Of a DNA stretch of 64,000 nt, positions 12,122 to 22,903 are shown in pieces. Numbering within the stretch: the stretch's first letter is position 1; the number at the start of each line of letters is the position of its first letter. A model generated the notes under the pieces. The model searched no databases. It was not told the origin of the DNA and saw only the letters and a list, made by a program, of their open reading frames with translations. The stretch covers positions 29,339 to 93,338 of the forward strand of contig DAOTJS010000004.1 of NCBI GenBank assembly GCA_035448825.1, in the 5' to 3' direction. The position numbers and the translations under genes were made by a program. This DNA comes from Fidelibacterota bacterium (lineage in GTDB: Bacteria; Fidelibacterota; UBA2242).

Positions 12122-12709
12122 TTAGATATAATTCGCTGGCGGCAGGTTCTCATAAATCGCTCTTATAGTCGGGATTAACTCCTCAAAATTCAAAAAGCGA
12201 TGTCCGCCGCTCTCGGAAATTATCACCTGACAATTATTTACCCTAAAATATTCCGCCGCTTTTCGGTAGTCCAGCAGTTCATCATCCCGATTGAGAAAAA
12301 CGAACAGGTTCTGGGGATTGATTGTTTGGGGTGAGTGGTAAAGGGCACGAATCTCAGAAGTAAATTTCTGACACCAGGCCGCCAGCGGGCTATTATCAAT
12401 TTCGCCGGGATTATCATCTGGTAGGTAAGTATCGCCGATAGGGTCAACTGTCGGGTTCAGCAGAATTGCCGGGAAACCATATTCCTGATTCAAATGCAAA
12501 GCATAAAACCCACCTAAACTGGATCCGACCAATAAGATGCGAGAATCATTCCCGGCTTTTCGAATATTCTCGATTATCGTTTCAATCGCCGCCGCTGGCT
12601 CCAACGGTAAATCCGGCGCTAATATCATTTTATCGGTAAAATGCGCCCGTAAAATCTGGGCTTTGGTAGCCTGTCCCGAACTACCGAATCCATGACAATA
12701 TATCAACAT
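12122..12709 (-). CDS. yqiA: YqiA/YcfP-family alpha/beta hydrolase (esterase)
   Basis: 195 aa. Collinear with my recollection of E. coli YqiA: N-terminal LIYCHGFGSS, nucleophile elbow GSSLGGFYA, DELLDY, and C-terminal GGHRF. Confidence 0.8.
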   Translation of the reverse strand: MLIYCHGFGSSGQATKAQILRAHFTDKMILAPDLPLEPAAAIETIIENIRKAGNDSRILLVGSSLGGFYALHLNQEYGFPAILLNPTVDPIGDTYLPDDNPGEIDNSPLAAWCQKFTSEIRALYHSPQTINPQNLFVFLNRDDELLDYRKAAEYFRVNNCQVIISESGGHRFLNFEELIPTIRAIYENLPPANYI

Positions 12710-12716
12710 TTAAATC

Positions 12717-13256
12717 TCAAGAATTACTATTCTGCTTATCAACCGGATGAACCTTCCAATCAACAGACGGTTCGACAATTTCGATTTGCCGATCCGGTTT
12801 GCGCATCACAACTCTTTCGATCTTAGCATTTGCAATAATTGCCTTGCACTGATCGCAAATAAACTTATGACCAACGACATAAATAGTAGCGCCGGCGGTA
12901 GCTTGACCATTACGAGCCGCTAGAACGACGGCATTGGATTCGGCATGCGAACCTACCGCCCGACACCGTTCCAACTGCGTCCCGGACTTGATCTTATGTC
13001 GGTCGCGGTAACAATAGCCGATTTCCATACAATTCGGCTGGTTGGTTGGCGCTCCGTTATAACCGGTGGAGACGATCACTTTGTCGCGCACAATCACCGC
13101 GCCGACTTTATTCCGGAAGCAGGTTGAACGACTTGCCACCATTTCGGCAATATCCAGGAAATATTCGTCCCAGGTTTTGCGAATTGGCTGAGGTGATTTC
13201 GACTCCGATGACTTTTTATTTTTCTGCATTGTGAATATCGTTCTCCATTTGGGCAA
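12717..13256 (-). CDS. Deoxycytidylate (dCMP) deaminase, CMP/dCMP zinc-binding family
   Basis: Zinc motifs HAESNA and a PCxxC-like ICDQCKAI, with the dCMP deaminase-type core VGAVIVRDKVIVSTGYNG. The start may be the internal MQKNKK. Confidence 0.85.
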   Translation of the reverse strand: MPKWRTIFTMQKNKKSSESKSPQPIRKTWDEYFLDIAEMVASRSTCFRNKVGAVIVRDKVIVSTGYNGAPTNQPNCMEIGYCYRDRHKIKSGTQLERCRAVGSHAESNAVVLAARNGQATAGATIYVVGHKFICDQCKAIIANAKIERVVMRKPDRQIEIVEPSVDWKVHPVDKQNSNS

Positions 13257-13330
13257 AATATACGAAAGCCTAAACCAGAAATGAAGGAAATCGTTAAAAG
13301 ACTGAGGTCGAGGCTAAGAAAAGAGGAAAT

Positions 13331-13482
13331 GTCACCCTGAGCTTTAAAGTCACTCTGAGCTTGTCGAAGAGTGACACTATTGCTTATCCTATGCCTATCA
13401 AGTAACTCATGCTTCGATGAACTCATGCTTCGATAAACTCAGCATGACACAGTAAGTCACCCTGAGTCCATCGAAGGGTGAC
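13331..13482. repeat. Hairpin-repeat cluster A (stem / TCGAnnnnCTC loop / stem units)
   Basis: Perfect hairpins at 13349-13375 (GTCACTCT/AGAGTGAC), 13424-13446 (CATGCT/AGCATG) and 13456-13482 (GTCACCCT/AGGGTGAC). There is an orphan arm at 13331-13342 and a conserved spacer ...CTTATCCTATGCCTATCAAGTAACTC. Confidence 0.9.
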
Positions 13483-13777
13483 AGTCCTTCCTTTTCCAAT
13501 AAGCCACTGATAGTTCTGGCAATTTATCCCATTCACCGTTAATCAATGCTTCTTTTTTGGCTCTTCTCCATCCTTTTATTTTCTTCTCATTCTCAATAGC
13601 AGACATAATATCCATTTCTTCTGAACACCATGCCAGCTTTACCGGTAGCCGGGAATGAATATAACCTTTTACAAAGCCGGATTGATGTTCGTAAAGTCTC
13701 CTTTCTGGATTATTGGTTACCCCGGTATAATAGGAACCGTCTGAACATTCAAGTATGTAAACAAATCCTGTTTTCAC
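13457..13777 (-). CDS. GIY-YIG nuclease superfamily protein (small stand-alone URI-domain type, COG2827-like)
   Basis: 106 aa. Contains FVYILECSDGSYYTGVTNNPERRLYEHQSG (GIY...YIG plus a conserved Arg and Glu) and an EKKIKGW helix. The last 8 codons (CHPSMDSG) are encoded by hairpin repeat 13456-13482. Confidence 0.9.
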   Translation of the reverse strand: MKTGFVYILECSDGSYYTGVTNNPERRLYEHQSGFVKGYIHSRLPVKLAWCSEEMDIMSAIENEKKIKGWRRAKKEALINGEWDKLPELSVAYWKRKDCHPSMDSG

Positions 13778-13790
13778 AATTTATTCGGCT

Positions 13791-14036
13791 ATCCTTCAAT
13801 GCTTCGATAAACTCATGCTTCGATAAACTCAGGATGACAGGAAAACTCACAATGTCACCCTGAGTGTGTCGAAGAGTGACAATATCGCTTATCCTATATC
13901 TATCAAGTAACTCATCCTTCGATGAACTCAGGATGACGATGAACTCATGCTTCGATGAACTCATGCTTCGATGAACTCATGCTTCGATGAACTCAGCATG
14001 ACATAGTAAGTCACCCTGAGTCCATCGAAGGGTGAC
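13791..14036. repeat. Hairpin-repeat cluster B
   Basis: Hairpins at 13854-13880 (one mismatch), 13913-13935 (CATCCT/AGGATG), 13978-14000 (CATGCT/AGCATG) and 14010-14036 (GTCACCCT/AGGGTGAC). Four tandem 16-nt half units CGATGAACTCATGCTT occupy 13937-14000. Confidence 0.9.
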
Positions 14037-14395
14037 CTAAAACAATCAGTTACATAAATAACGCCGGCAACAAAGTCAATCAGGTAAATTCTTTACTTAA
14101 TTAACACCATCTTCTTGATTTCGCTAAAGCGCTTACTTTTATTACTCATATCCAGAACCTCTAACCGGTAAAAATACAACCCACTGGTAAAATCTGCGCG
14201 AGGGCTGAATTTCATAGTATAAACTCCAGGACTCTTGATGCCATCTTCTAGCGTAAGTACTTTCTGACCAATAAGATTGTAAACCTCGATCTTAACTAGT
14301 GACTGTGAACTGAGCGAATAGGTTATCGTAGTCGCTGAGTTGAACGGATTGGGATAGTTCTGAGATAGAGAGTAAAACGGTATTTTCATTTCTTC
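13995..14395. repeat. Shared 3' module, copy 1 (T9SS C-terminal domain + 3' UTR + terminal hairpin); near-identical to 17720-18120
   Basis: Constant offset of 3725 nt to copy 2. The encoded last 100 aa differ at only a few positions, and the 3' flank CCTAAAACAATCAGTTACATAAATAACGCCGGCAACAAAGTCAATCAGG is identical. Confidence 0.9.
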
Positions 14396-17260
14396 TTCAT
14401 TAATCTTAGTTCCATTCGAGCTATACTTAATCGTGGTGTAAACGCTCCAGGTGTAAACGCCCCAGTAATATCCTTCACTATTTCCAGTAACAAAAACATT
14501 TCCATAACCGTCAACAGCAATATCTGCAGCCAAATAATAAACATTTCCTTGTCCATTATATCGAGCTACCCATTGCTCTTCGCCATTTGAGTTGTACTTC
14601 ACGGTCGCATAATCATTATTTGTTCCTGAGCCTTCGCTTCTTCCGGTAACATAAACATTGCCAGAACCATCGATGGCAAGAGCTTTAGCCTCGTCCCAAT
14701 CATTTCTTGGTCCATTATACCTTGCTACCCACTGCTCTTCGCCATTTGAACTATACTTAATAGTCGCGTAATCAGGCAATAATTCTGAACCATAACTATA
14801 TCCCGTAACATAAACATTGCCAGAACCATCAATAGCAAGAGCATTGGCATAGTCCCAAGAATTTCCCGGTCCATTATACCTTACTACCCATTGCTCTTCG
14901 CCATTTGAGTTGTACTTCACGGTCGCATAATCATCACCTGTTTCTGAACCAGAACTACATCCAGTAACATAAACATTGCCAGAACCATCAATAGCAAGAG
15001 CATAGGCCTCGTCATCATAATTTCCTGGTCCATTATACCTTGCTACCCACTTCTCTTCACCATTTGAACTATACTTAATAGTAGCGTAATCATGCCTTGA
15101 TTCTGAACCCTTACTATATCCGGTAACATAAACATTGCCAGAACCATCAATAGCAAGAGCATAGGCCTCGTCATCATAATTTCCTGGTCCATTATACCTT
15201 GCTACCCATTGCTCTTCGCCATTTGAGTTATATTTAATAGTCGCATAATCATAATCTGTTCCTGAGCCTTCACTATATCCGGTAACATAAACATTGCCAG
15301 AACCATCAATAGCAAGAGCATTGGCATAGTCACAAAAATTTCCCGGTCCATTATATCGGGCTACCCACTGCTCTTCACCATTTGAGTTGTACTTCACGGT
15401 CGCATAATCATCATCTGTTCCTGAACCTTCGCTTCTACCGGTAACATAAACATTGCCAGAACCATCAATAGCAATAGCCTGAGCTTTATCATAAGAATTT
15501 CCCGGTCCATTATATCGGGCTACCCACTGCTCTTCACCATTTGAGTTGTACTTCACGGTCGCATAATCATCATCTGTTCCTGAACCTTCGCTTCTACCGG
15601 TAACATAAACATTGCCAGAACCATCAATAGCAATAGCCTGAGCTTTATCATAAGAATTTCCCGGTCCATTATATCGAGCTACCCACTGCTCTTCACCATT
15701 TGAGTTGTACTTCACGGTCGCATAATCATAATCTGTTCCTGAGCCATAGCTTTCTCCGGTAACATAAACATTGCCAGAACCATCAATAGCAATAGCATTG
15801 GCATAGTCCAAAGAATTTCCCGGTCCATTATATCGGGCTACCCATTGCTCTTCACCATTGGAGTTGTACTTCACGGTCGCATAATCAACAACTGTTTCTG
15901 AACCATAGCTATATCCGGTAACATAAACATTCCCAGAACCATCAATAGCAATAGCCTGAGCTTCATCATAAGAGTTTCCTGGTCTATTATATCGGGCTAC
16001 CCATTGCTCTTCACCATTTGAGTTGTACTTCACGGTCGCATAATCCTCTTCTGTTTCTGAACCATAGCTATATCCGGTAACATAAACATTGCTAGAACCA
16101 TCAATTGCAATAGCATAGGCATCGTCACAAAAATTTCCTGGGCCATTATATCGGGCTACCCATTGCTCTTCACCATTGGAGTTGTACTTCACGGTCGCAT
16201 AATCATAATCTGTTCCTGAGCCATAGCTTTCTCCGGTAACATAAACATTGCCAGAACCATCAATAGCAAGAGCTTCTGCATAGTCACAAAAATTTCCTGG
16301 TCCATTATATCGGGCTACCCATTGCTCTTCACCATTTGAGTTATATTTAATAGTCGCATAATCATAATCTGTTCCTGAGCCTTCACTATATCCGGTAACA
16401 TAAACATTGCCAGAACCATCAATAGCAAGAGCATTGGCATAGTCACAAAAATTTCCCGGTCCATTATATCGGGCTACCCACTGCTCTTCACCATTTGAGT
16501 TGTACTTCACGGTCGCATAATCATCATATGTTCCTGAGCCATAGCTATATCCGGTAACATACACATTGCCAGAGCCATCAATAGCAAGAGCATTGGCATA
16601 GTCATCAGTATTTCCTGGTCCATTATATCGGGCTACCCACTGCTCTTCGCCATTTGAGTTATATTTAATAGTCGCATAATCATAATATGTTCCCGAACAA
16701 TCGCTTTCTCCGGTAACATAAACATTGCCAAAACTGTCAATAGCCAGAGCAGATGCAAAATCATCTCCTCCATTATCATACCTAACCGCCCAGATTGTAT
16801 TACCAGAATTGTCATATTTTACAGTAAAATAATCTACTCCAAATGGTAGTCCTGTACTATACCCGGTAACATAGATATAACCCTGATTATCAACGGCAAT
16901 ATCAGTTGCGACATCCTTGGCTGGATCCAGTCCAGAGGCATAGTGCCTTACCCATTCCGGTTCCTTATTAGTAGTTGAGGTACTCTGGAGATTGAGAACA
17001 GAAGTAGCATCTCGAGACCCAGAAGGATAGGGATCTCTATAAGGTTGTTCGTCTGAGCGTTCGACTGAGCTCACGCCTTGGTCCATCGGAAACTTAGGAT
17101 GATGATGCCGGTTAAAATGTTCACTTTTCTCTAATCGCTCTTCCGAAAATCGGGAATGATGTGGTGAGTCTATCAAACTACGATTTGCCGGTGACTCCTG
17201 GGAATGGGCTACAAGTCCTGCCAAAACAAAAACAACTAATGAAACAAAATACCTTTTCAT
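14093..17260 (-). CDS. T9SS-secreted SBBP (beta-propeller) repeat protein
   Basis: 1055 aa. Signal peptide MKRYFVSLVVFVLAGLVAHSQ, then a His-rich segment. About 15 tandem 53-aa repeats follow (DYATVKYNSNGEEQWVARYNGPGN..D.A.AIAIDGSGNVYVTG.S.GS). The C-terminal Por secretion tail reads LSQNYPNPFNSATTITYSL...SGLYFYRLEV. Confidence 0.9.
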   Translation of the reverse strand: MKRYFVSLVVFVLAGLVAHSQESPANRSLIDSPHHSRFSEERLEKSEHFNRHHHPKFPMDQGVSSVERSDEQPYRDPYPSGSRDATSVLNLQSTSTTNKEPEWVRHYASGLDPAKDVATDIAVDNQGYIYVTGYSTGLPFGVDYFTVKYDNSGNTIWAVRYDNGGDDFASALAIDSFGNVYVTGESDCSGTYYDYATIKYNSNGEEQWVARYNGPGNTDDYANALAIDGSGNVYVTGYSYGSGTYDDYATVKYNSNGEEQWVARYNGPGNFCDYANALAIDGSGNVYVTGYSEGSGTDYDYATIKYNSNGEEQWVARYNGPGNFCDYAEALAIDGSGNVYVTGESYGSGTDYDYATVKYNSNGEEQWVARYNGPGNFCDDAYAIAIDGSSNVYVTGYSYGSETEEDYATVKYNSNGEEQWVARYNRPGNSYDEAQAIAIDGSGNVYVTGYSYGSETVVDYATVKYNSNGEEQWVARYNGPGNSLDYANAIAIDGSGNVYVTGESYGSGTDYDYATVKYNSNGEEQWVARYNGPGNSYDKAQAIAIDGSGNVYVTGRSEGSGTDDDYATVKYNSNGEEQWVARYNGPGNSYDKAQAIAIDGSGNVYVTGRSEGSGTDDDYATVKYNSNGEEQWVARYNGPGNFCDYANALAIDGSGNVYVTGYSEGSGTDYDYATIKYNSNGEEQWVARYNGPGNYDDEAYALAIDGSGNVYVTGYSKGSESRHDYATIKYSSNGEEKWVARYNGPGNYDDEAYALAIDGSGNVYVTGCSSGSETGDDYATVKYNSNGEEQWVVRYNGPGNSWDYANALAIDGSGNVYVTGYSYGSELLPDYATIKYSSNGEEQWVARYNGPRNDWDEAKALAIDGSGNVYVTGRSEGSGTNNDYATVKYNSNGEEQWVARYNGQGNVYYLAADIAVDGYGNVFVTGNSEGYYWGVYTWSVYTTIKYSSNGTKINEEEMKIPFYSLSQNYPNPFNSATTITYSLSSQSLVKIEVYNLIGQKVLTLEDGIKSPGVYTMKFSPRADFTSGLYFYRLEVLDMSNKSKRFSEIKKMVLIK

Positions 17261-17604
17261 AACATACCTACTCTATAATTTGTTAAACTTTTCAACTGAC
17301 TAACTTCAGGTAAGTAAAGTAAATAGACAGCACTATTCGCCTTCCTACCGAGCCTCAAAGTAATTTTATAAGTGAAACTTCCTGCCATGCTTTTTTCTTT
17401 TTATAATATTACTAATATTTAGAACTAATTCAAGCTTTTAATTGATATTTTTGGACTTCAAGAGGACTTTTAGAAGGTTATCGTTTATCTATTCTCAAGG
17501 CATGGGCGTTGGCACGAAATAAATCGCCATGCTTCGATAAACTCATCCTTCGATAAACTCAGGATGACATCCTTAGTATCATTCTGAGAAATGTCACCCT
17601 GAGC
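17051..17604. repeat. Shared 5' module, copy 1 (N-terminal about 70 codons + about 270-nt leader/promoter region + start of hairpin cluster); about 93 percent identical by eye to 19975-20528
   Basis: Constant offset of 2924 nt. The N-terminal peptide is identical: AGLVAHSQESPANRSLIDSPHHSRFSEERLEKSEHFNRHHHPKFPMDQGV. Confidence 0.9.
17406..17433 (-). promoter_or_regulatory. Sigma-70-like promoter candidate for the SBBP gene
   Basis: Minus strand TTGAAT (17433-17428), 16-nt spacer, TAATAT (17411-17406), about 145 nt upstream of the ATG. Conserved in the paralog leader. Confidence 0.3.
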
Positions 17605-17761
17605 TCTAATGTCACTCTGAGCCTGTCGAAGAGTGACATTATCGCTTATCCTATGCCTATCAAGTAACTCATCCTTCGATAAACTCAGGATGACGATAAA
17701 CTCATGCTTCGATAAACTCAGCATGACATAGTAAGTCACCCTGAGTCCATCGAAGGGTGAC
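17528..17761. repeat. Hairpin-repeat cluster C
   Basis: Hairpins at 17544-17566 and 17670-17692 (CATCCT/AGGATG), 17611-17637 (GTCACTCT/AGAGTGAC), 17703-17725 (CATGCT/AGCATG) and 17735-17761 (GTCACCCT/AGGGTGAC). Confidence 0.9.
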
Positions 17762-18120
17762 CTAAAACAATCAGTTACATAAATAACGCCGGCAACAAAG
17801 TCAATCAGGTAAATTCTTTACTTAATTAACACCATCTTCTTGATTTCGCTAAAGCGCTTACTTTTATTACTCATATCCAGAACCTCTAACCGGTAAAAAT
17901 ACAACCCACTGGTAAAATCTGCGCGAGGGCTGAATTTCATAGTATAAACTCCAGGACTCTTGATGCCATCTTCTAGCGTAAGTACTTTCTGACCAATAAG
18001 GTTGTAAATCTCGATCTTAACTAGTGACTGTGAACTGATCGAATAGGTTATAGTAGTAGCCGAGTTGAACGGATTGGGATAGTTCTGGGATAGAGAGTAA
18101 ACCGGTGGTTTCATTTCTTC
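17720..18120. repeat. Shared 3' module, copy 2 (see 13995-14395)
   Basis: Same sequence as copy 1 at an offset of 3725 nt. Confidence 0.9.
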
Positions 18121-20184
18121 GTCCTCTATTCCCACTGCACCAGAGAATTGATAGATTTGTAATCCAGCACTCCCATCTGCGACATAGGCATATGACCCTG
18201 AAACATAAACATTCTCAGCATACTCAGGTGTATCATAATATCCTGCTTCATAAGGTGAAGAAGGGTCTGAAACATTGATTATACTTAGACCAGCAGAACC
18301 ACCTGCAACATAGGCATAAGCCCCTGAAACATAAACGTCCTCAGCCCAATCAGGTATATCATAATATCCTGCTTCGTAATAAGGTGAAGAAGGGTCTGAA
18401 ACATTGATTATCCTTAAACCATACCCATATACAACATAGGCATAAGAACCTGAAACATAAACATCTAAAGCCCAATCAGGTATATCATAATATCCTGCTT
18501 CGTAAGGTGAAGAAGGGTCTGAAACATTGATTATCCTTAAACCAGCATACTCATCTGCAACATAGGCATAAGACCCTGAAACATAAACATCTAAAGCACA
18601 CCCAGGTGTAGCATAATATCCTGCTTCGTAAGGCGAAGAAGGATCTGAAACATTTATTATCCTTAGACCAGCTTCACTGTCTGCAACATAGGCATAAGAA
18701 CCTGAAACATAAACACCATAAGTCCACCCAGGTGTATCATAATATCCTGCTTCGTAAGGTGAAGAAGGGTCTGAAACACTTATTATCCTTAGACCAGCTT
18801 CACTGTCTGCAATATAGGCATAAGAACCTGAAACATAAACATCTAAAGTCCACCCAGGTGTATCATAATATCCTGTTTCGTAAGGTGAAGAAGGGTCTGA
18901 AACATTGATTATCTTTAAACAATACCCATCTGCAACATAGGCATAAGAACCTGAAACATAAACATTCTCAGCATACCCAGGTGTATCATAATATCCTGCT
19001 TCGTAAGGTGAAGAAGGGTCTGAAACATTGATTATCTTTAGACCAGCATACTCATCTACAACATAGGCATAAGAACCTGAAACATAAACATCTAAAGCCC
19101 ACCCAGGTGTAGCATAATATCCTGCTTCATAAGGTGAAGAAGGGTCTGAAACATTGATTATCCTTAAACCATACCCATCTACAACATAGACATAAGACCC
19201 TGAAACATAAATACCCAGAGCATTATCAGATATATCATAATATCCTGCTTCGTAAGGTGAAGAAGGGTCTGAAACATTGACTATCCTTAAACCAGCAAAC
19301 TCATCTGCAACATAGGCATAAGACCCTGAAACATAAACATCTAAAGCCCACCCAGGTGTAGCATGATATCCTGCTTCATAAGGCGAAGAAGGATCTGAAA
19401 CACTTATTATCCTTAGACCAGCTTCACTGTCTGCAACATAGGCATAAGAACCTGAAACATAAACACCATAAGTCCACCCAGGTGTATCATAATATCCTGC
19501 TTCGTAAGGTGAAGAAGGGTCTGAAACATTGATTATCCTTAGACCAGCAAACTCATCTGCAACATAGGCATAAGACCCTGAAACATAAACATCTAAAGCA
19601 TAATTAGGTGTAAAATAATAACCCAATTTAGAGGGGCTTTCAGTATTGGCTACATTCCATATTTCAAGCCCACCTTGACCATCCGCAATGTAAAGTTGCT
19701 GGTTTGATGATTCATAGAAAAAGCCTTCAACAACACCCCTCGTATAGATTGCCTCTGAGATTTTTATCGGATTTGAAGGAACTGAGACATCAAGAATATA
19801 GACACCTCCCCCTGAACCGGCAAATGCAAGATTCCTTACGTTGTCATAGGCAACCGCAAAAGGAAGACCAAATGGCCAATTACCTACAAATCTTACATTC
19901 AAAGAGTCAAAACTTGAAGAGACAGCATAGGCATCTCGAGAGTCTGAAGAATAGTGATTTCTCTGAGGGTGTCCGTCTGAGCGTTCAACTGAGATCACGC
20001 CTTGGTCCATCGGAAACTTAGGATGATGATGCCGATTAAAATGTTCACTTTTCTCTAATCGCTCTTCCGAAAATCGGGAATGATGTGGTGAGTCTATCAA
20101 ACTACGATTTGCCGGTGACTCCTGGGAATGGGCTACAAGTCCTGCCAAAACAAAAATAACTAATGAAACAAAACACCTTTTCAT
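17818..20184 (-). CDS. T9SS-secreted LVIVD repeat protein
   Basis: 788 aa. It has the same signal peptide and His-rich N-terminus as the SBBP paralog. About 13 tandem repeats of 41-42 aa follow (GSYAYVAD..AGLRIINVSDPSSPYEAGYYDTPGW..DVYVS). The Por secretion tail is the same. Confidence 0.9.
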   Translation of the reverse strand: MKRCFVSLVIFVLAGLVAHSQESPANRSLIDSPHHSRFSEERLEKSEHFNRHHHPKFPMDQGVISVERSDGHPQRNHYSSDSRDAYAVSSSFDSLNVRFVGNWPFGLPFAVAYDNVRNLAFAGSGGGVYILDVSVPSNPIKISEAIYTRGVVEGFFYESSNQQLYIADGQGGLEIWNVANTESPSKLGYYFTPNYALDVYVSGSYAYVADEFAGLRIINVSDPSSPYEAGYYDTPGWTYGVYVSGSYAYVADSEAGLRIISVSDPSSPYEAGYHATPGWALDVYVSGSYAYVADEFAGLRIVNVSDPSSPYEAGYYDISDNALGIYVSGSYVYVVDGYGLRIINVSDPSSPYEAGYYATPGWALDVYVSGSYAYVVDEYAGLKIINVSDPSSPYEAGYYDTPGYAENVYVSGSYAYVADGYCLKIINVSDPSSPYETGYYDTPGWTLDVYVSGSYAYIADSEAGLRIISVSDPSSPYEAGYYDTPGWTYGVYVSGSYAYVADSEAGLRIINVSDPSSPYEAGYYATPGCALDVYVSGSYAYVADEYAGLRIINVSDPSSPYEAGYYDIPDWALDVYVSGSYAYVVYGYGLRIINVSDPSSPYYEAGYYDIPDWAEDVYVSGAYAYVAGGSAGLSIINVSDPSSPYEAGYYDTPEYAENVYVSGSYAYVADGSAGLQIYQFSGAVGIEDEEMKPPVYSLSQNYPNPFNSATTITYSISSQSLVKIEIYNLIGQKVLTLEDGIKSPGVYTMKFSPRADFTSGLYFYRLEVLDMSNKSKRFSEIKKMVLIK

Positions 20185-20528
20185 AACATACCTACTCTAT
20201 AATTTGTCAAACTTTCCAACTGACTAACTTCAGGCAAGTAAGGTAAATAGACAGCACTATTCACCTTCCTACCGAGCCTCAAAGTAATTTTATGAGTGAA
20301 ACTTCCTGCCATGCTATTTTATTTTTATAATATTACGAATATTTAGAATTAATTCAAGCTTTTAGTGGATATTTTTGGACTTCAAGTGGACTTTTAGAAG
20401 GTTATCGTTTATCTATTCTCAAGGCATGGGCGTTGGCACGAAATAAATCGCCATGCTTCGATAAACTCATCCTTCGATGAACTCAGGATGACATCCTTAG
20501 TATCATTCTGAGAAATGTCACCCTGAGT
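19975..20528. repeat. Shared 5' module, copy 2 (see 17051-17604)
   Basis: Offset of 2924 nt from copy 1. Confidence 0.9.
20330..20357 (-). promoter_or_regulatory. Sigma-70-like promoter candidate for the LVIVD gene (paralogous to 17406-17433)
   Basis: TTGAAT (20357-20352), 16-nt spacer, TAATAT (20335-20330) on the minus strand. Confidence 0.3.
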
Positions 20529-20699
20529 GTGTCGAAGGGCGACAACATCTCTTATCCTATATCTATCAAGTAACTCATCCTTCGATAAACTCATCCTTCG
20601 ATGAACTCAGGATGACAATGAACTCATGCTTCGATGAACTCACGCTTCGACAGGCTCAGCGTGACATGGTAGGTTACCCTTCGGTAACCTCAGCATGAC
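20452..20699. repeat. Hairpin-repeat cluster D
   Basis: Hairpins at 20468-20490 and 20592-20614 (CATCCT/AGGATG), 20517-20543 (one mismatch), 20641-20663 (CACGCT/AGCGTG) and GGTTACC/GGTAACC at 20672-20689. Terminal arm AGCATG at 20692-20697. Confidence 0.9.
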
Positions 20700-21019
20700 A
20701 TTTTTTGTCTTCTCTTTTTTCTCAGCCTTAGCCTAAAAATGCCGAAGACCAGGAGAAACATCTCCAATCCTTCCCCCTTTCTAATTTCCTCCCAATCAAT
20801 CGCCAATTGTCGAGATTTATCTGGCAAATTATCTCTATTTTTCCTAAATTTGAATCGTGATTTTTGGTATTTTTTTCTTTAATTTCAATCAATTTCTGAA
20901 TATTAAAACCAATTTAACTAGATCAAGGTTTTTACATTTAAATCGAGTATTTTCAGAAAACAAATCAGTTTTTCCGCTTCAAATATAATAGGTAACCATT
21001 TAAAACAAAGGTGATAAAA

Positions 21020-22903
21020 ATGAAACAACTATTTGCTTTCAGTGTAATGATTATGCTATTTCTGTCTAATGAAGAAACCTCCGTTGCGCAAACACGCGAC
21101 CGATCTCAGATTCCCGAAAAATATACCTGGGACTTGACACCGATTTATCCATCAGACGAAGCCTATTTAGTAGCCAAAGATGCTGTAGTCAAAAAATTCG
21201 ATCAGATTCTAAATTACAAAGGCAAACTCGGACAATCGGCTGACCAACTCTATGCTTGCCTTAATCTTCATAGCGAAATTAGTAAGGAAATGGCGCGACT
21301 GGGCTCGTATATCAATTTCAAAGCCGACCTCGATACCCGCGATACGAAATACCTCGGCCTGCGTCAGGAACTCTCGCAACTTGCTACCGAATATTATACG
21401 AAGGCAGCTTTTATTCAACCTGAAATCCTTGAAATCGATCCGGCTAAGCTGAAAAAATTCATTGCTTCCAAAAAAGAATTGAAGGTCTTCGAGTTTTATA
21501 TTAATGACCTGATCCGCGTTAAGAAGCATCTACTTTCCGAAAAAGAAGAAAAAATCATAGCCGAAACAGGCTTATTCGCCGATGCGCCTTATACTATCTA
21601 TGGTCTATTTAGCAATGCCGAATTCCCCTTCCCGGAAATCGTTCTAAGCGACGGAACCAAAGTCAAACTCGATCTGGCTACCTTTGCTACCTTGCGTGCT
21701 CTTCCGGTGCGCGCCGATCGCGAATTGGTTTTCAACTCTTTCTTCGGCAAAATGTATGATTTCCGTCGCACATTTGGGGCAACTATGGACGCCAATATCA
21801 AACAGCATCTTTTTATCGCTCACGTTCGTAATTATAACAGTTGTTTGGAAGCCGCCCTTGATGCCAATAATATTCCCACCAAAGTCTATACGGCTTTGAT
21901 AAAAAACGTTAATGACAATCTACCGACTTTTTACCGTTACCTTAAAATTAAACAGCAGTTGCTCGGCGTGGACACGCTGAAATATACCGACCTTTATACA
22001 CCGGTTGTCAAAGATTTGGCTATTGATTATCCAGTTGAAACTGCTCAAGAGATGATTTTAAGCGCTCTGCAACCACTGGGAAGCGATTACCTCAGCGTTA
22101 TCGAACGCGCTTTTAACGAGCGCTGGATTGATGTTTACCCGACTCCCGCCAAACGGAGTGGCGCTTATTCCGACGGCTCAATTTACGACGTGCATCCCTA
22201 CATTTTGCTCAATTACTGTAATAAATATGATGACGTCGCGACGATGGCGCACGAACTTGGTCACACTATGCACAGCTACTTTTCCAATAAGACGCAACCA
22301 TATCCGCTTGCCGACTACTCGATTTTCGTCGCTGAAGTCGCCTCGACCTTCAACGAAGTTTTGCTTTTTCACGATAATTTAAATAAAGTTACCGATCCCG
22401 ATCAGAAACTTACCCTATTGATGAATTATCTAGATGGCATCAAAGGCACGGTTTTTCGCCAAACGCAGTTTGCCGAGTTTGAACTGCGCATTCATGAAAT
22501 GGCGGAACGTGGTGAGCAGTTGACCGGTGACTCGATGACCGAGCTTTATAAACAAATCGTGCGGACGTATTATGGCCACGACAAAGGTATTTGCTACGTG
22601 GATGACGTCATCAATATCGAATGGGCTTATATTCCCCACTTCTATTATAATTTCTATGTTTATCAGTACGCCACTTCCTTCACAGCCGCTACCGCTTTAG
22701 CCAAAAAAGTATTGGAAGGTGACCAATCCGCTCGGTCCAATTATCTGAATTTCCTTTCTTCCGGCGGTTCCGACTACCCGATCAATCAGTTAAAAGCCGC
22801 CGGTGTTGATATGACTACCGCCGAACCATTCAATCTGACAATGAAGGAAATGAATTGGGTAATGGACGAAATCGAAAAAGTACTCGCCGAAAAGAAGAAG
22901 TAA
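21020..22903 (+). CDS. pepF: Oligoendopeptidase F (M3B family), secreted or periplasmic
   Basis: HELGH zinc motif (MAHELGHTMHSY), downstream Glu in FVAEVASTFNE, and pepF-typical length. The track ORF starts at GTG 21011, but ATG 21020 follows the AGGTGA RBS. A signal peptide is present. Confidence 0.88.
   Translation: MKQLFAFSVMIMLFLSNEETSVAQTRDRSQIPEKYTWDLTPIYPSDEAYLVAKDAVVKKFDQILNYKGKLGQSADQLYACLNLHSEISKEMARLGSYINFKADLDTRDTKYLGLRQELSQLATEYYTKAAFIQPEILEIDPAKLKKFIASKKELKVFEFYINDLIRVKKHLLSEKEEKIIAETGLFADAPYTIYGLFSNAEFPFPEIVLSDGTKVKLDLATFATLRALPVRADRELVFNSFFGKMYDFRRTFGATMDANIKQHLFIAHVRNYNSCLEAALDANNIPTKVYTALIKNVNDNLPTFYRYLKIKQQLLGVDTLKYTDLYTPVVKDLAIDYPVETAQEMILSALQPLGSDYLSVIERAFNERWIDVYPTPAKRSGAYSDGSIYDVHPYILLNYCNKYDDVATMAHELGHTMHSYFSNKTQPYPLADYSIFVAEVASTFNEVLLFHDNLNKVTDPDQKLTLLMNYLDGIKGTVFRQTQFAEFELRIHEMAERGEQLTGDSMTELYKQIVRTYYGHDKGICYVDDVINIEWAYIPHFYYNFYVYQYATSFTAATALAKKVLEGDQSARSNYLNFLSSGGSDYPINQLKAAGVDMTTAEPFNLTMKEMNWVMDEIEKVLAEKKK

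Follow-up and report, generated by a model that had tools for sequence, protein, structure and literature searches.

The question raised by the 64,000-nucleotide (nt) stretch of Fidelibacterota DNA analysed here (contig DAOTJS010000004.1; "the window" means the whole of this stretch) is whether its four clusters of short hairpin repeats belong functionally with the small GIY-YIG nuclease gene that two of them enclose. We favor, as the probable answer, that the clusters are arrays of the cognate DNA site of this nuclease, organised like bacterial interspersed mosaic elements (BIMEs), and that the nuclease itself lies in the Ssn family or is sister to it. Our reasoning for this is that: (i) the repeat combines the loop TCGA-N4-CTC with the closing pairs C-G and T-A, two pairs that covary freely and the outer stem (T)GTCA/TGAC(A); (ii) repeat, gene and repeat form a conserved unit, shared by about nine phyla and set in genomic surroundings unrelated to one another; and (iii) a specific link between this hairpin class and the small GIY-YIG gene is supported by comparison across genomes.

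A strict scan of the window, which required the loop TCGAN4CTC and a perfect stem of at least 5 bp, returned 14 hairpins with stems of 7-12 bp, all inside the four clusters (A-D, Table 1), compared with a mean of 0.01 in the dinucleotide-shuffled window. The bare loop motif occurs 40 times where 7.2 +/- 2.9 copies would be expected, and 25 of the 40 lie within the clusters. A relaxed scan of the 64 kb added three hairpins with one mismatch each, bringing the total to 17, and found none outside the four clusters, which are intergenic. The repeats had already been noticed in a preliminary description of this DNA; the four clusters and all the copies it listed, including two of the one-mismatch hairpins, were recovered with positions that agree to within one stem base. 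When folded as single-stranded DNA (ssDNA), cluster C reaches -43 kcal/mol (z = -7.1).

The preliminary description had also taken the differing but complementary stems as a sign of covariation, and within the window this argument is weaker than it was made out to be. All stems fit (G)TCA[C/T][C/G/T]CT and vary only at positions 3 and 4 from the loop, giving five types, so any covariation seen here hangs on a handful of changes. Furthermore, clusters A-D align as versions of one 150-240-nt mosaic element and have near-identical flanks (300 nt common to B and C at 99% identity, 13969-14268 and 17694-17993; 300 nt common to C and D at 93% identity, 16998-17297 and 19922-20221), which means that the 14 copies represent far fewer independent events. 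The clusters also hold 16-nt tandem half-units consisting of a stem arm and the loop, for example (CTCATGCTTCGATGAA)n, that do not fold alone. Arrays of such partial units were also found at the comparison loci L086, L004, L019, L067 and L044; the units recur every 16 nt in the window and every 24 or 42 nt elsewhere, and one complete hairpin closes each array. They may have arisen by slippage at the direct repeat AACTCA, or they may be a footprint of nuclease action.

Across genomes the covariation holds. We scanned metagenomes with the pattern CTTCGACAAGCTCAG, which selects on the loop and the two closing pairs only and is therefore unbiased for the remaining stem, and obtained 120 loci. Of 132 metagenome copies, 94% are paired at stem position 3 and 89% at position 4, with at least four pair types at each, and over ten stem positions 67.7% are paired, compared with 54.8 +/- 0.9% in shuffles (0 of 500 reached the observed value) and 27-44% in slid controls. 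The outer stems fall into a few "dialects" (TGTCA/TGACA, CCGTTCG/CGAACGG and CCTCA/TGAGG). The conserved loop and the covarying inner pairs point to selection on a folded structure rather than on coding capacity, as had been proposed. Copies are mostly intergenic and are depleted in long open reading frames (33%, compared with 77% of random positions). Neighbouring copies are inverted in 48 cases and direct in nine, and many doublets show pairing of outer and inner arms from one unit to the other, in the manner of the hairpin-forming doublets (REPINs) of repetitive extragenic palindromic (REP) sequences. At 117 of the 120 loci the copies are solo hairpins or inverted doublets without the GIY-YIG gene, and no other protein family recurs beside the solo hairpins of these metagenome loci.

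The link between hairpin and gene was assessed in 80 homologous loci with flanks of up to 10 kb, from Bacteroidota, Ignavibacteriota, Nitrospinota, Nitrospirota, Chloroflexota, Pseudomonadota, Desulfobacterota, Lentisphaerota and Marinimicrobia. The density of strict hairpins is 0.93 per kb within 300 nt of the gene and 0.020 per kb in the other 1.21 Mb of flanks, a 47-fold difference; for relaxed hairpins the densities are 1.90 and 0.042 per kb (45-fold). At least one relaxed hairpin lies within 300 nt of the gene at 55 of the 80 loci (69%), and 35 (44%) have hairpins on both sides. Typically, an inverted hairpin precedes the start codon by 10-80 nt and another lies at or over the stop codon. 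The window gene fits this layout: the copy at 13813-13837 is about 36 nt from its start codon, and the copy at 13456-13482 lies over its end, where the last eight codons (...CHPSMDSG, followed by the stop) are the in-frame translation of the hairpin. The C-termini HPSTSSG, HPSTGSG, TLRQAQGD and HPEPVEG of homologues are likewise in-frame hairpin translations, and such tails were found in Nitrospinota, Nitrospirota, Desulfobacterota and Bacteroidota. Hairpins downstream of the gene or overlapping its end are oriented 29:5 in favor of "+", those upstream 18:12 in favor of "-". The suspicion voiced in the preliminary description, that the hairpins are tied to the GIY-YIG gene, is borne out by this enrichment and by the conservation of the repeat-gene-repeat layout. 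A practical consequence is that the hairpins create false C-terminal extensions and false small open reading frames in annotation; the common spurious tails PFDKLRANG, SLSKGE and LRQAQGD presumably have their source in this hairpin class as well.

Among the near-gene hairpins, a set selected on complementarity alone and not on the closing pair, that pair is T-A in 64 of 64, the loop is TCGACARGCTC in 47 of 64, and 20 different inner stems are found. In some variants the loop has 12 nt (TCGRCTCCGCTC) or its centre is expanded by about 20-25 nt, so the constant parts are CT/TCGA and CTC/AG. Homologues 88, 80 and 75% identical to the window protein occur in unrelated contexts (lexA-dinB, PEGA/cohesin and a pilus (pil) operon), the 88% and 80% homologues with canonical flanking hairpins and the 75% homologue with expanded-loop variants. 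That close homologues keep their hairpins in unrelated surroundings argues that gene and hairpins travel together.

The small open reading frame between clusters A and B was correctly recognised in the preliminary description as a GIY-YIG gene. The catalytic residues Y7, Y17, R27 and E64 are invariant across 33 homologues, and the AlphaFold model shows a confident GIY-YIG fold (predicted local distance difference test, pLDDT, 83.7). Among solved structures, Foldseek ranks BH0048 and EF2693, two uncharacterised proteins of UPF0213, ahead of Slx1, and the UPF0213 profile E-values are 2e-19 and 2e-15 (BH0048 / EF2693), a comparison that leaves UPF0213 and its sister, the Ssn clade, undistinguished. 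The protein subfamily is marked by the motif IKGW(R/S)RxKKEALI; BH0048 and EF2693 lack the Trp of KGWxRxKK, which the Sinorhizobium meliloti type has. With an S. meliloti homologue that is flanked by repeats resembling the NTS of Neisseria, the window protein is 44% identical over 88 amino acids, and Devosia and Sphingomonas homologues (55% and 46% identity) are flanked by the TCGA-loop hairpin type. A scan of the window protein against NCBIfam gave no match. Slx1, a weak structural match, was rejected as an identity for the protein, which ends after the GIY-YIG domain and has no C-terminal RING or zinc finger. Its start codon at 13775-13777 is GTG, and close homologues have ATG at the same position (MKTGFVYILECS). 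Phage records yielded only distant homologues, with 41-47% identity over 71% of the protein; plasmid and chromid records contain alphaproteobacterial cases, with no annotated repeat features at these homologues.

The repeats on either side of a second GIY-YIG subtype (YILASKRNGTLYTGVT...KKWxRxxK) are of another kind, particular to it (Table 1). In Pedobacter these are a 170-nt direct repeat, and in S. meliloti a 115-nt element with the hairpin ATCCCTGTG-CTCGT-CACAGGGAT, located between hflX and mazG. At one Pedobacter locus both protein subtypes are present 4.5 kb apart, each with its own flanking repeat.

Precedent for pairing a GIY-YIG enzyme with hairpins, of which the preliminary description knew none, comes from the Ssn family, GIY-YIG nucleases of one domain whose genes have hairpin repeats (NTS/SRM) beside them (Chenal et al. 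2025, Nat Commun 16:2388; PMC11893778). SsnA of Neisseria meningitidis (94 amino acids, a single GIY-YIG domain, CDD cd10448) is encoded between two repeats, NTS-ssnA-NTS; its binding and cleavage of the repeat are confined to ssDNA and to one strand, the cut falling just upstream of the hairpin, and it does not bind RNA (PMC11893778). Ssn homologues were shown to cut their own repeats, and SRM are found near 71% of Ssn homologues and on both sides in 42% (PMC11893778). In the NTS the loop is dispensable, and what matters is the stem, three nucleotides upstream and the C after the palindrome; the authors liken the Ssn layout to insertion sequence (IS) elements, to REPs with their REP-associated tyrosine transposases (RAYTs) and to BIMEs (PMC11893778). 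In the literature we found no follow-up to this work and no other link between this gene family and repeats. What had been suggested to be an uncharacterised nuclease with its cognate repeat is thus upheld as a nuclease with a cognate structured repeat, of a kind that has been described (PMC11893778).

The likeness to Ssn extends to the single-domain protein of about 95-105 amino acids, the 20-50-nt hairpin repeat on both sides of the gene, the fractions of flanked homologues (69% and 44% here, 71% and 42% published), the many extra intergenic copies that cluster around surface-protein genes, the IS-like layout and the wide spread over phyla. There are also differences. In the present hairpins it is the 11-nt loop (TCGA-N4-CTC) and the closing pairs that are conserved, with variation in the inner stem pairs, whereas the NTS loop is dispensable; "GTCA" lies inside the stem and is not an unpaired tag; and the window protein represents a separate subfamily, with the motif IKGW(R/S)RxKKEALI and 44% identity to the homologue flanked by NTS-like repeats. 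The hairpin class falls outside the published motif, and the recognition logic is apparently reversed.

By analogy with N. meningitidis SsnA and NTS, the protein would bind the hairpin when the DNA is single-stranded, as in replication, transformation or conjugation, on one strand only, and would nick nearby. It would read the loop and closing pairs rather than the stem sequence and flanks, the opposite of SsnA. Nicking at the arrays may either promote or restrict recombination, and this could spread the repeats in an IS200/RAYT-like manner and make flanked cassettes exchangeable. If the proposed pairing is true, the Ssn system, one year old, gains a very widespread hairpin class that was missed by the published search motif, and a loop-reading enzyme with a free stem would give a different, possibly more programmable, ssDNA-cutting specificity. 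A bolder proposal, which we put forward tentatively and hold to be possible but doubtful, is that this is a second, mechanistically distinct Ssn-type class of nuclease and hairpin that reads the 11-nt loop and closing pairs while leaving the stem free, spans at least nine phyla, is an active mobile unit and, through its arrays, makes exchangeable cassettes of secreted-protein genes.

Several other systems invite comparison. With REP/BIME and RAYT the locus shares a single enzyme gene between inverted hairpins, abundant solo copies and REPIN-like doublets, mosaic clusters of alternating orientation and a mostly intergenic location. It differs in that the enzyme is a GIY-YIG protein and not an HUH Y1 transposase, and in that the loop is the conserved part. 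The GTAG or CGTC foot tag was not found on the stems, which start with (T)GTCA, CCGTTCG or CCTCA. A RAYT as the partner enzyme was rejected, the only enzyme being the GIY-YIG protein and no other family recurring near solo copies. As in IS200/IS605, a small element with one small gene carries hairpins that are read as folded ssDNA, subterminally there and putatively here; however, the end hairpins are on the same strand in IS200/IS605 and inverted here, and the catalytic fold differs. Integron attC sites resemble the clusters as structure-defined, sequence-variable hairpins that bracket gene cassettes, whereas the hairpins here are much shorter, have a conserved loop and stand in arrays. Integron-like cassettes were rejected, no integrase being present among seven neighbouring open reading frames scanned with Pfam.

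The clusters also bound a variable island, which the preliminary description had missed. In the relative L223, whose deoxycytidylate (dCMP) deaminase is 96% identical in amino acids, the alignment runs over 21493-20751 and then over 13307-12130 with 358 nt between, from which it follows that 7,443 nt (13308-20750) are present here and absent there. The island edges lie within 25-50 nt of clusters A and D, and in another relative a different hairpin cluster occupies this junction. The 358 nt at the L223 junction (L223 745-1102) are an unrelated segment, so this is not a clean empty site. In the relative L220 (1-4615; deaminase 84% identical) the corresponding neighbourhood has cas1 and cas2, probably also a clustered regularly interspaced short palindromic repeat (CRISPR) array, and no island. 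The G+C content of the island equals that of its flanks, and an argument for foreign origin from composition was rejected for this reason. The two cargo genes of the island have near-identical 5' ends (leader and about 87 codons) and 3' ends (sorting domain and downstream flank) with unrelated cores, and they look like common-ended cassettes that could be swapped by recombination. A similar arrangement is known from Neisseria, where repeat arrays, in NTS clusters and in the dRS3-bounded variable regions called minimal mobile elements, enclose surface- or secreted-protein genes that can be exchanged while the genes on either side are conserved (PMC11893778); phylum (Marinimicrobia-like), repeat and cargo (beta-propellers of the type IX secretion system, T9SS) are different here. 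The comparison ties repeat arrays to the presence or absence of secreted-protein genes in an uncultured phylum, and the island offers a concrete case for asking whether nuclease/repeat pairs drive cassette exchange.

Some of our observations weigh against a cognate pair of nuclease and repeat in the Ssn family or beside it. The GIY-YIG gene was found at 3 of the 120 pattern-selected loci, at two of these no more than 100 nt from the hairpin, and 25 of the 80 homologues (31%), including those of cultured Flavobacterium, Chryseobacterium and Pedobacter, have no hairpin nearby. The published SRM consensus, HGTCWYN(0-2)YYVSBRHN(0-5)WNVSBRGN(0-2)RNCYNB, has no match in the window and none within 400 nt of any of the 80 genes, so that Ssn membership rests on the protein and the layout; in 2.17 Mb it has 14 matches, none of them related to these hairpins and a few of them NTS-like solo copies. 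In four samples of one strain the clusters are identical, without polymorphism, and so give no sign of current movement. For this subfamily, binding, strand choice and cut site are carried over from SsnA, and the island could be a deletion in the relative and not an insertion here.

The 117 pattern-selected loci without the gene, the 31% of homologues without hairpins and the varied contexts of the gene would also be expected if the hairpins were an independent REP-like family and the GIY-YIG gene a selfish, homing-like gene that prefers to insert in or beside them, in the way that REPs serve as insertion sites for IS1397 and ISPpu9, with no enzyme-substrate relation behind the association. 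We consider this improbable. Insertion into an existing hairpin would leave split half-stems and not two complete inverted hairpins, whereas the layout is precise and conserved and the open reading frame ends inside a hairpin that covers its stop codon; the GIY-YIG subtypes with different flanking repeats, even within one locus (L016, L213), fit cognate pairs; and Ssn homologues cut their own repeats (PMC11893778). Another scenario places the hairpins in RNA, as 3'-end stabilisers, processing sites or protein-binding elements, with a regulatory link to the gene such as autoregulation. E. coli REPs are known to affect mRNA decay, the stems here covary, and the clusters lie at 3' ends and in 5' leaders of island genes. 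Nevertheless, we think a role in RNA very unlikely. Since neighbouring copies are mostly inverted, half of those in one transcript would show the complementary loop; G-T and A-C mismatches are equally frequent on the TCGA...CTC strand, leaving no G-U signature; a terminator scan of 13000-21000 found no sites where 4.9 were expected, and no T-tracts; and an Rfam scan of 12500-21500 (E <= 1) gave nothing above the gathering score, the best being RF02901 with 26 bits against a required 97. SsnA, moreover, does not bind RNA (PMC11893778).

The mosaic nature of the window, with flanks 93-99% identical between clusters and only five stem types, could be read as a mere by-product of duplicating one palindromic segment whose symmetry was kept by repair, so that no function need be assumed. 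This is hardly credible, since the comparison of genomes already speaks against it: loop, closing pair and the link to the gene are shared by loci from about nine phyla that have at least 20 different stems, and the covariation is present in 132 independent metagenome copies.

Table 1. Coordinates of the repeats, genes and island in the window and of related features at comparison loci (marked L). Signs in brackets give hairpin orientation.
Feature	Coordinates	Strand	Description
Example of the hairpin			GTCACCCTGAGTCCATCGAAGGGTGAC
Cluster A	13331..13482		3' of the GIY-YIG gene; hairpins 13349-13375(-), 13423-13447(+), 13456-13482(-); one 16-nt half-unit
Cluster B	13791..14036		5' of the GIY-YIG gene; hairpins 13813-13837(+, one mismatch), 13854-13880(-, one mismatch), 13912-13936(+), 13977-14001(+), 14010-14036(-); tandem 16-nt half-units
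Cluster C	17528..17761		No adjacent nuclease gene; hairpins 17543-17567(+), 17607-17641(-, 12-bp stem), 17669-17693(+), 17702-17726(+), 17735-17761(-)
Cluster D	20452..20699		Far island edge; hairpins 20467-20491(+), 20517-20543(-, one mismatch), 20591-20615(+), 20640-20664(+); half-units, degenerate terminal unit
Partial-unit tandem arrays	13399-13446; 13800-13830; 13937-14000; 17528-17560; 20452-20484; 20576-20660
GIY-YIG nuclease gene	13457..13777	-	106 amino acids, GTG start, single domain, Ssn-like / Slx1-like; PF01541, E 7e-15
Variable island	13308..20750	.	In order: cluster A, nuclease gene, cluster B, cargo gene 1 (SBBP), cluster C, cargo gene 2 (LVIVD), cluster D
Cargo gene 1	14093..17260	-	SBBP beta-propeller, 1055 amino acids, T9SS C-terminal sorting domain; clusters B and C on either side
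Cargo gene 2	17818..20184	-	LVIVD-repeat beta-propeller, 788 amino acids, T9SS sorting domain; clusters C and D on either side
Second GIY-YIG subtype	L016 5421-5735; L213 19995-20285
NTS-like repeats	L030 13772-13799; L063 18182-18289; L097 5264-5291; L073 339-371; L197 3753-3780

Canonical NTS-like repeats, such as CGTCATTCCCGCGAAAGCGGGAATCCAC, which is nearly the Neisseria consensus, were found singly or as doublets in several genomes, among them those of Dehalococcoidia and Nitrospirales. These genomes carry the TCGA-loop hairpin too, which means that two hairpin classes coexist in one genome. The sub-threshold RF02901 matches lie at 17552-17765 and 13349-14040; the consensus of the Aggregatibacter "sRNA 41" holds two inverted copies of CUGAGCUUGCCGAAG, and this annotated RNA may be an inverted doublet of a related repeat. 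Finally, both cargo genes contain long in-frame tandem repeats: the SBBP gene has 14 copies of a 159-nt unit (14465-16838) and the LVIVD gene 11 copies of a unit of about 126 nt (18120-19673), the copies being 60-93% identical to the reference copy.

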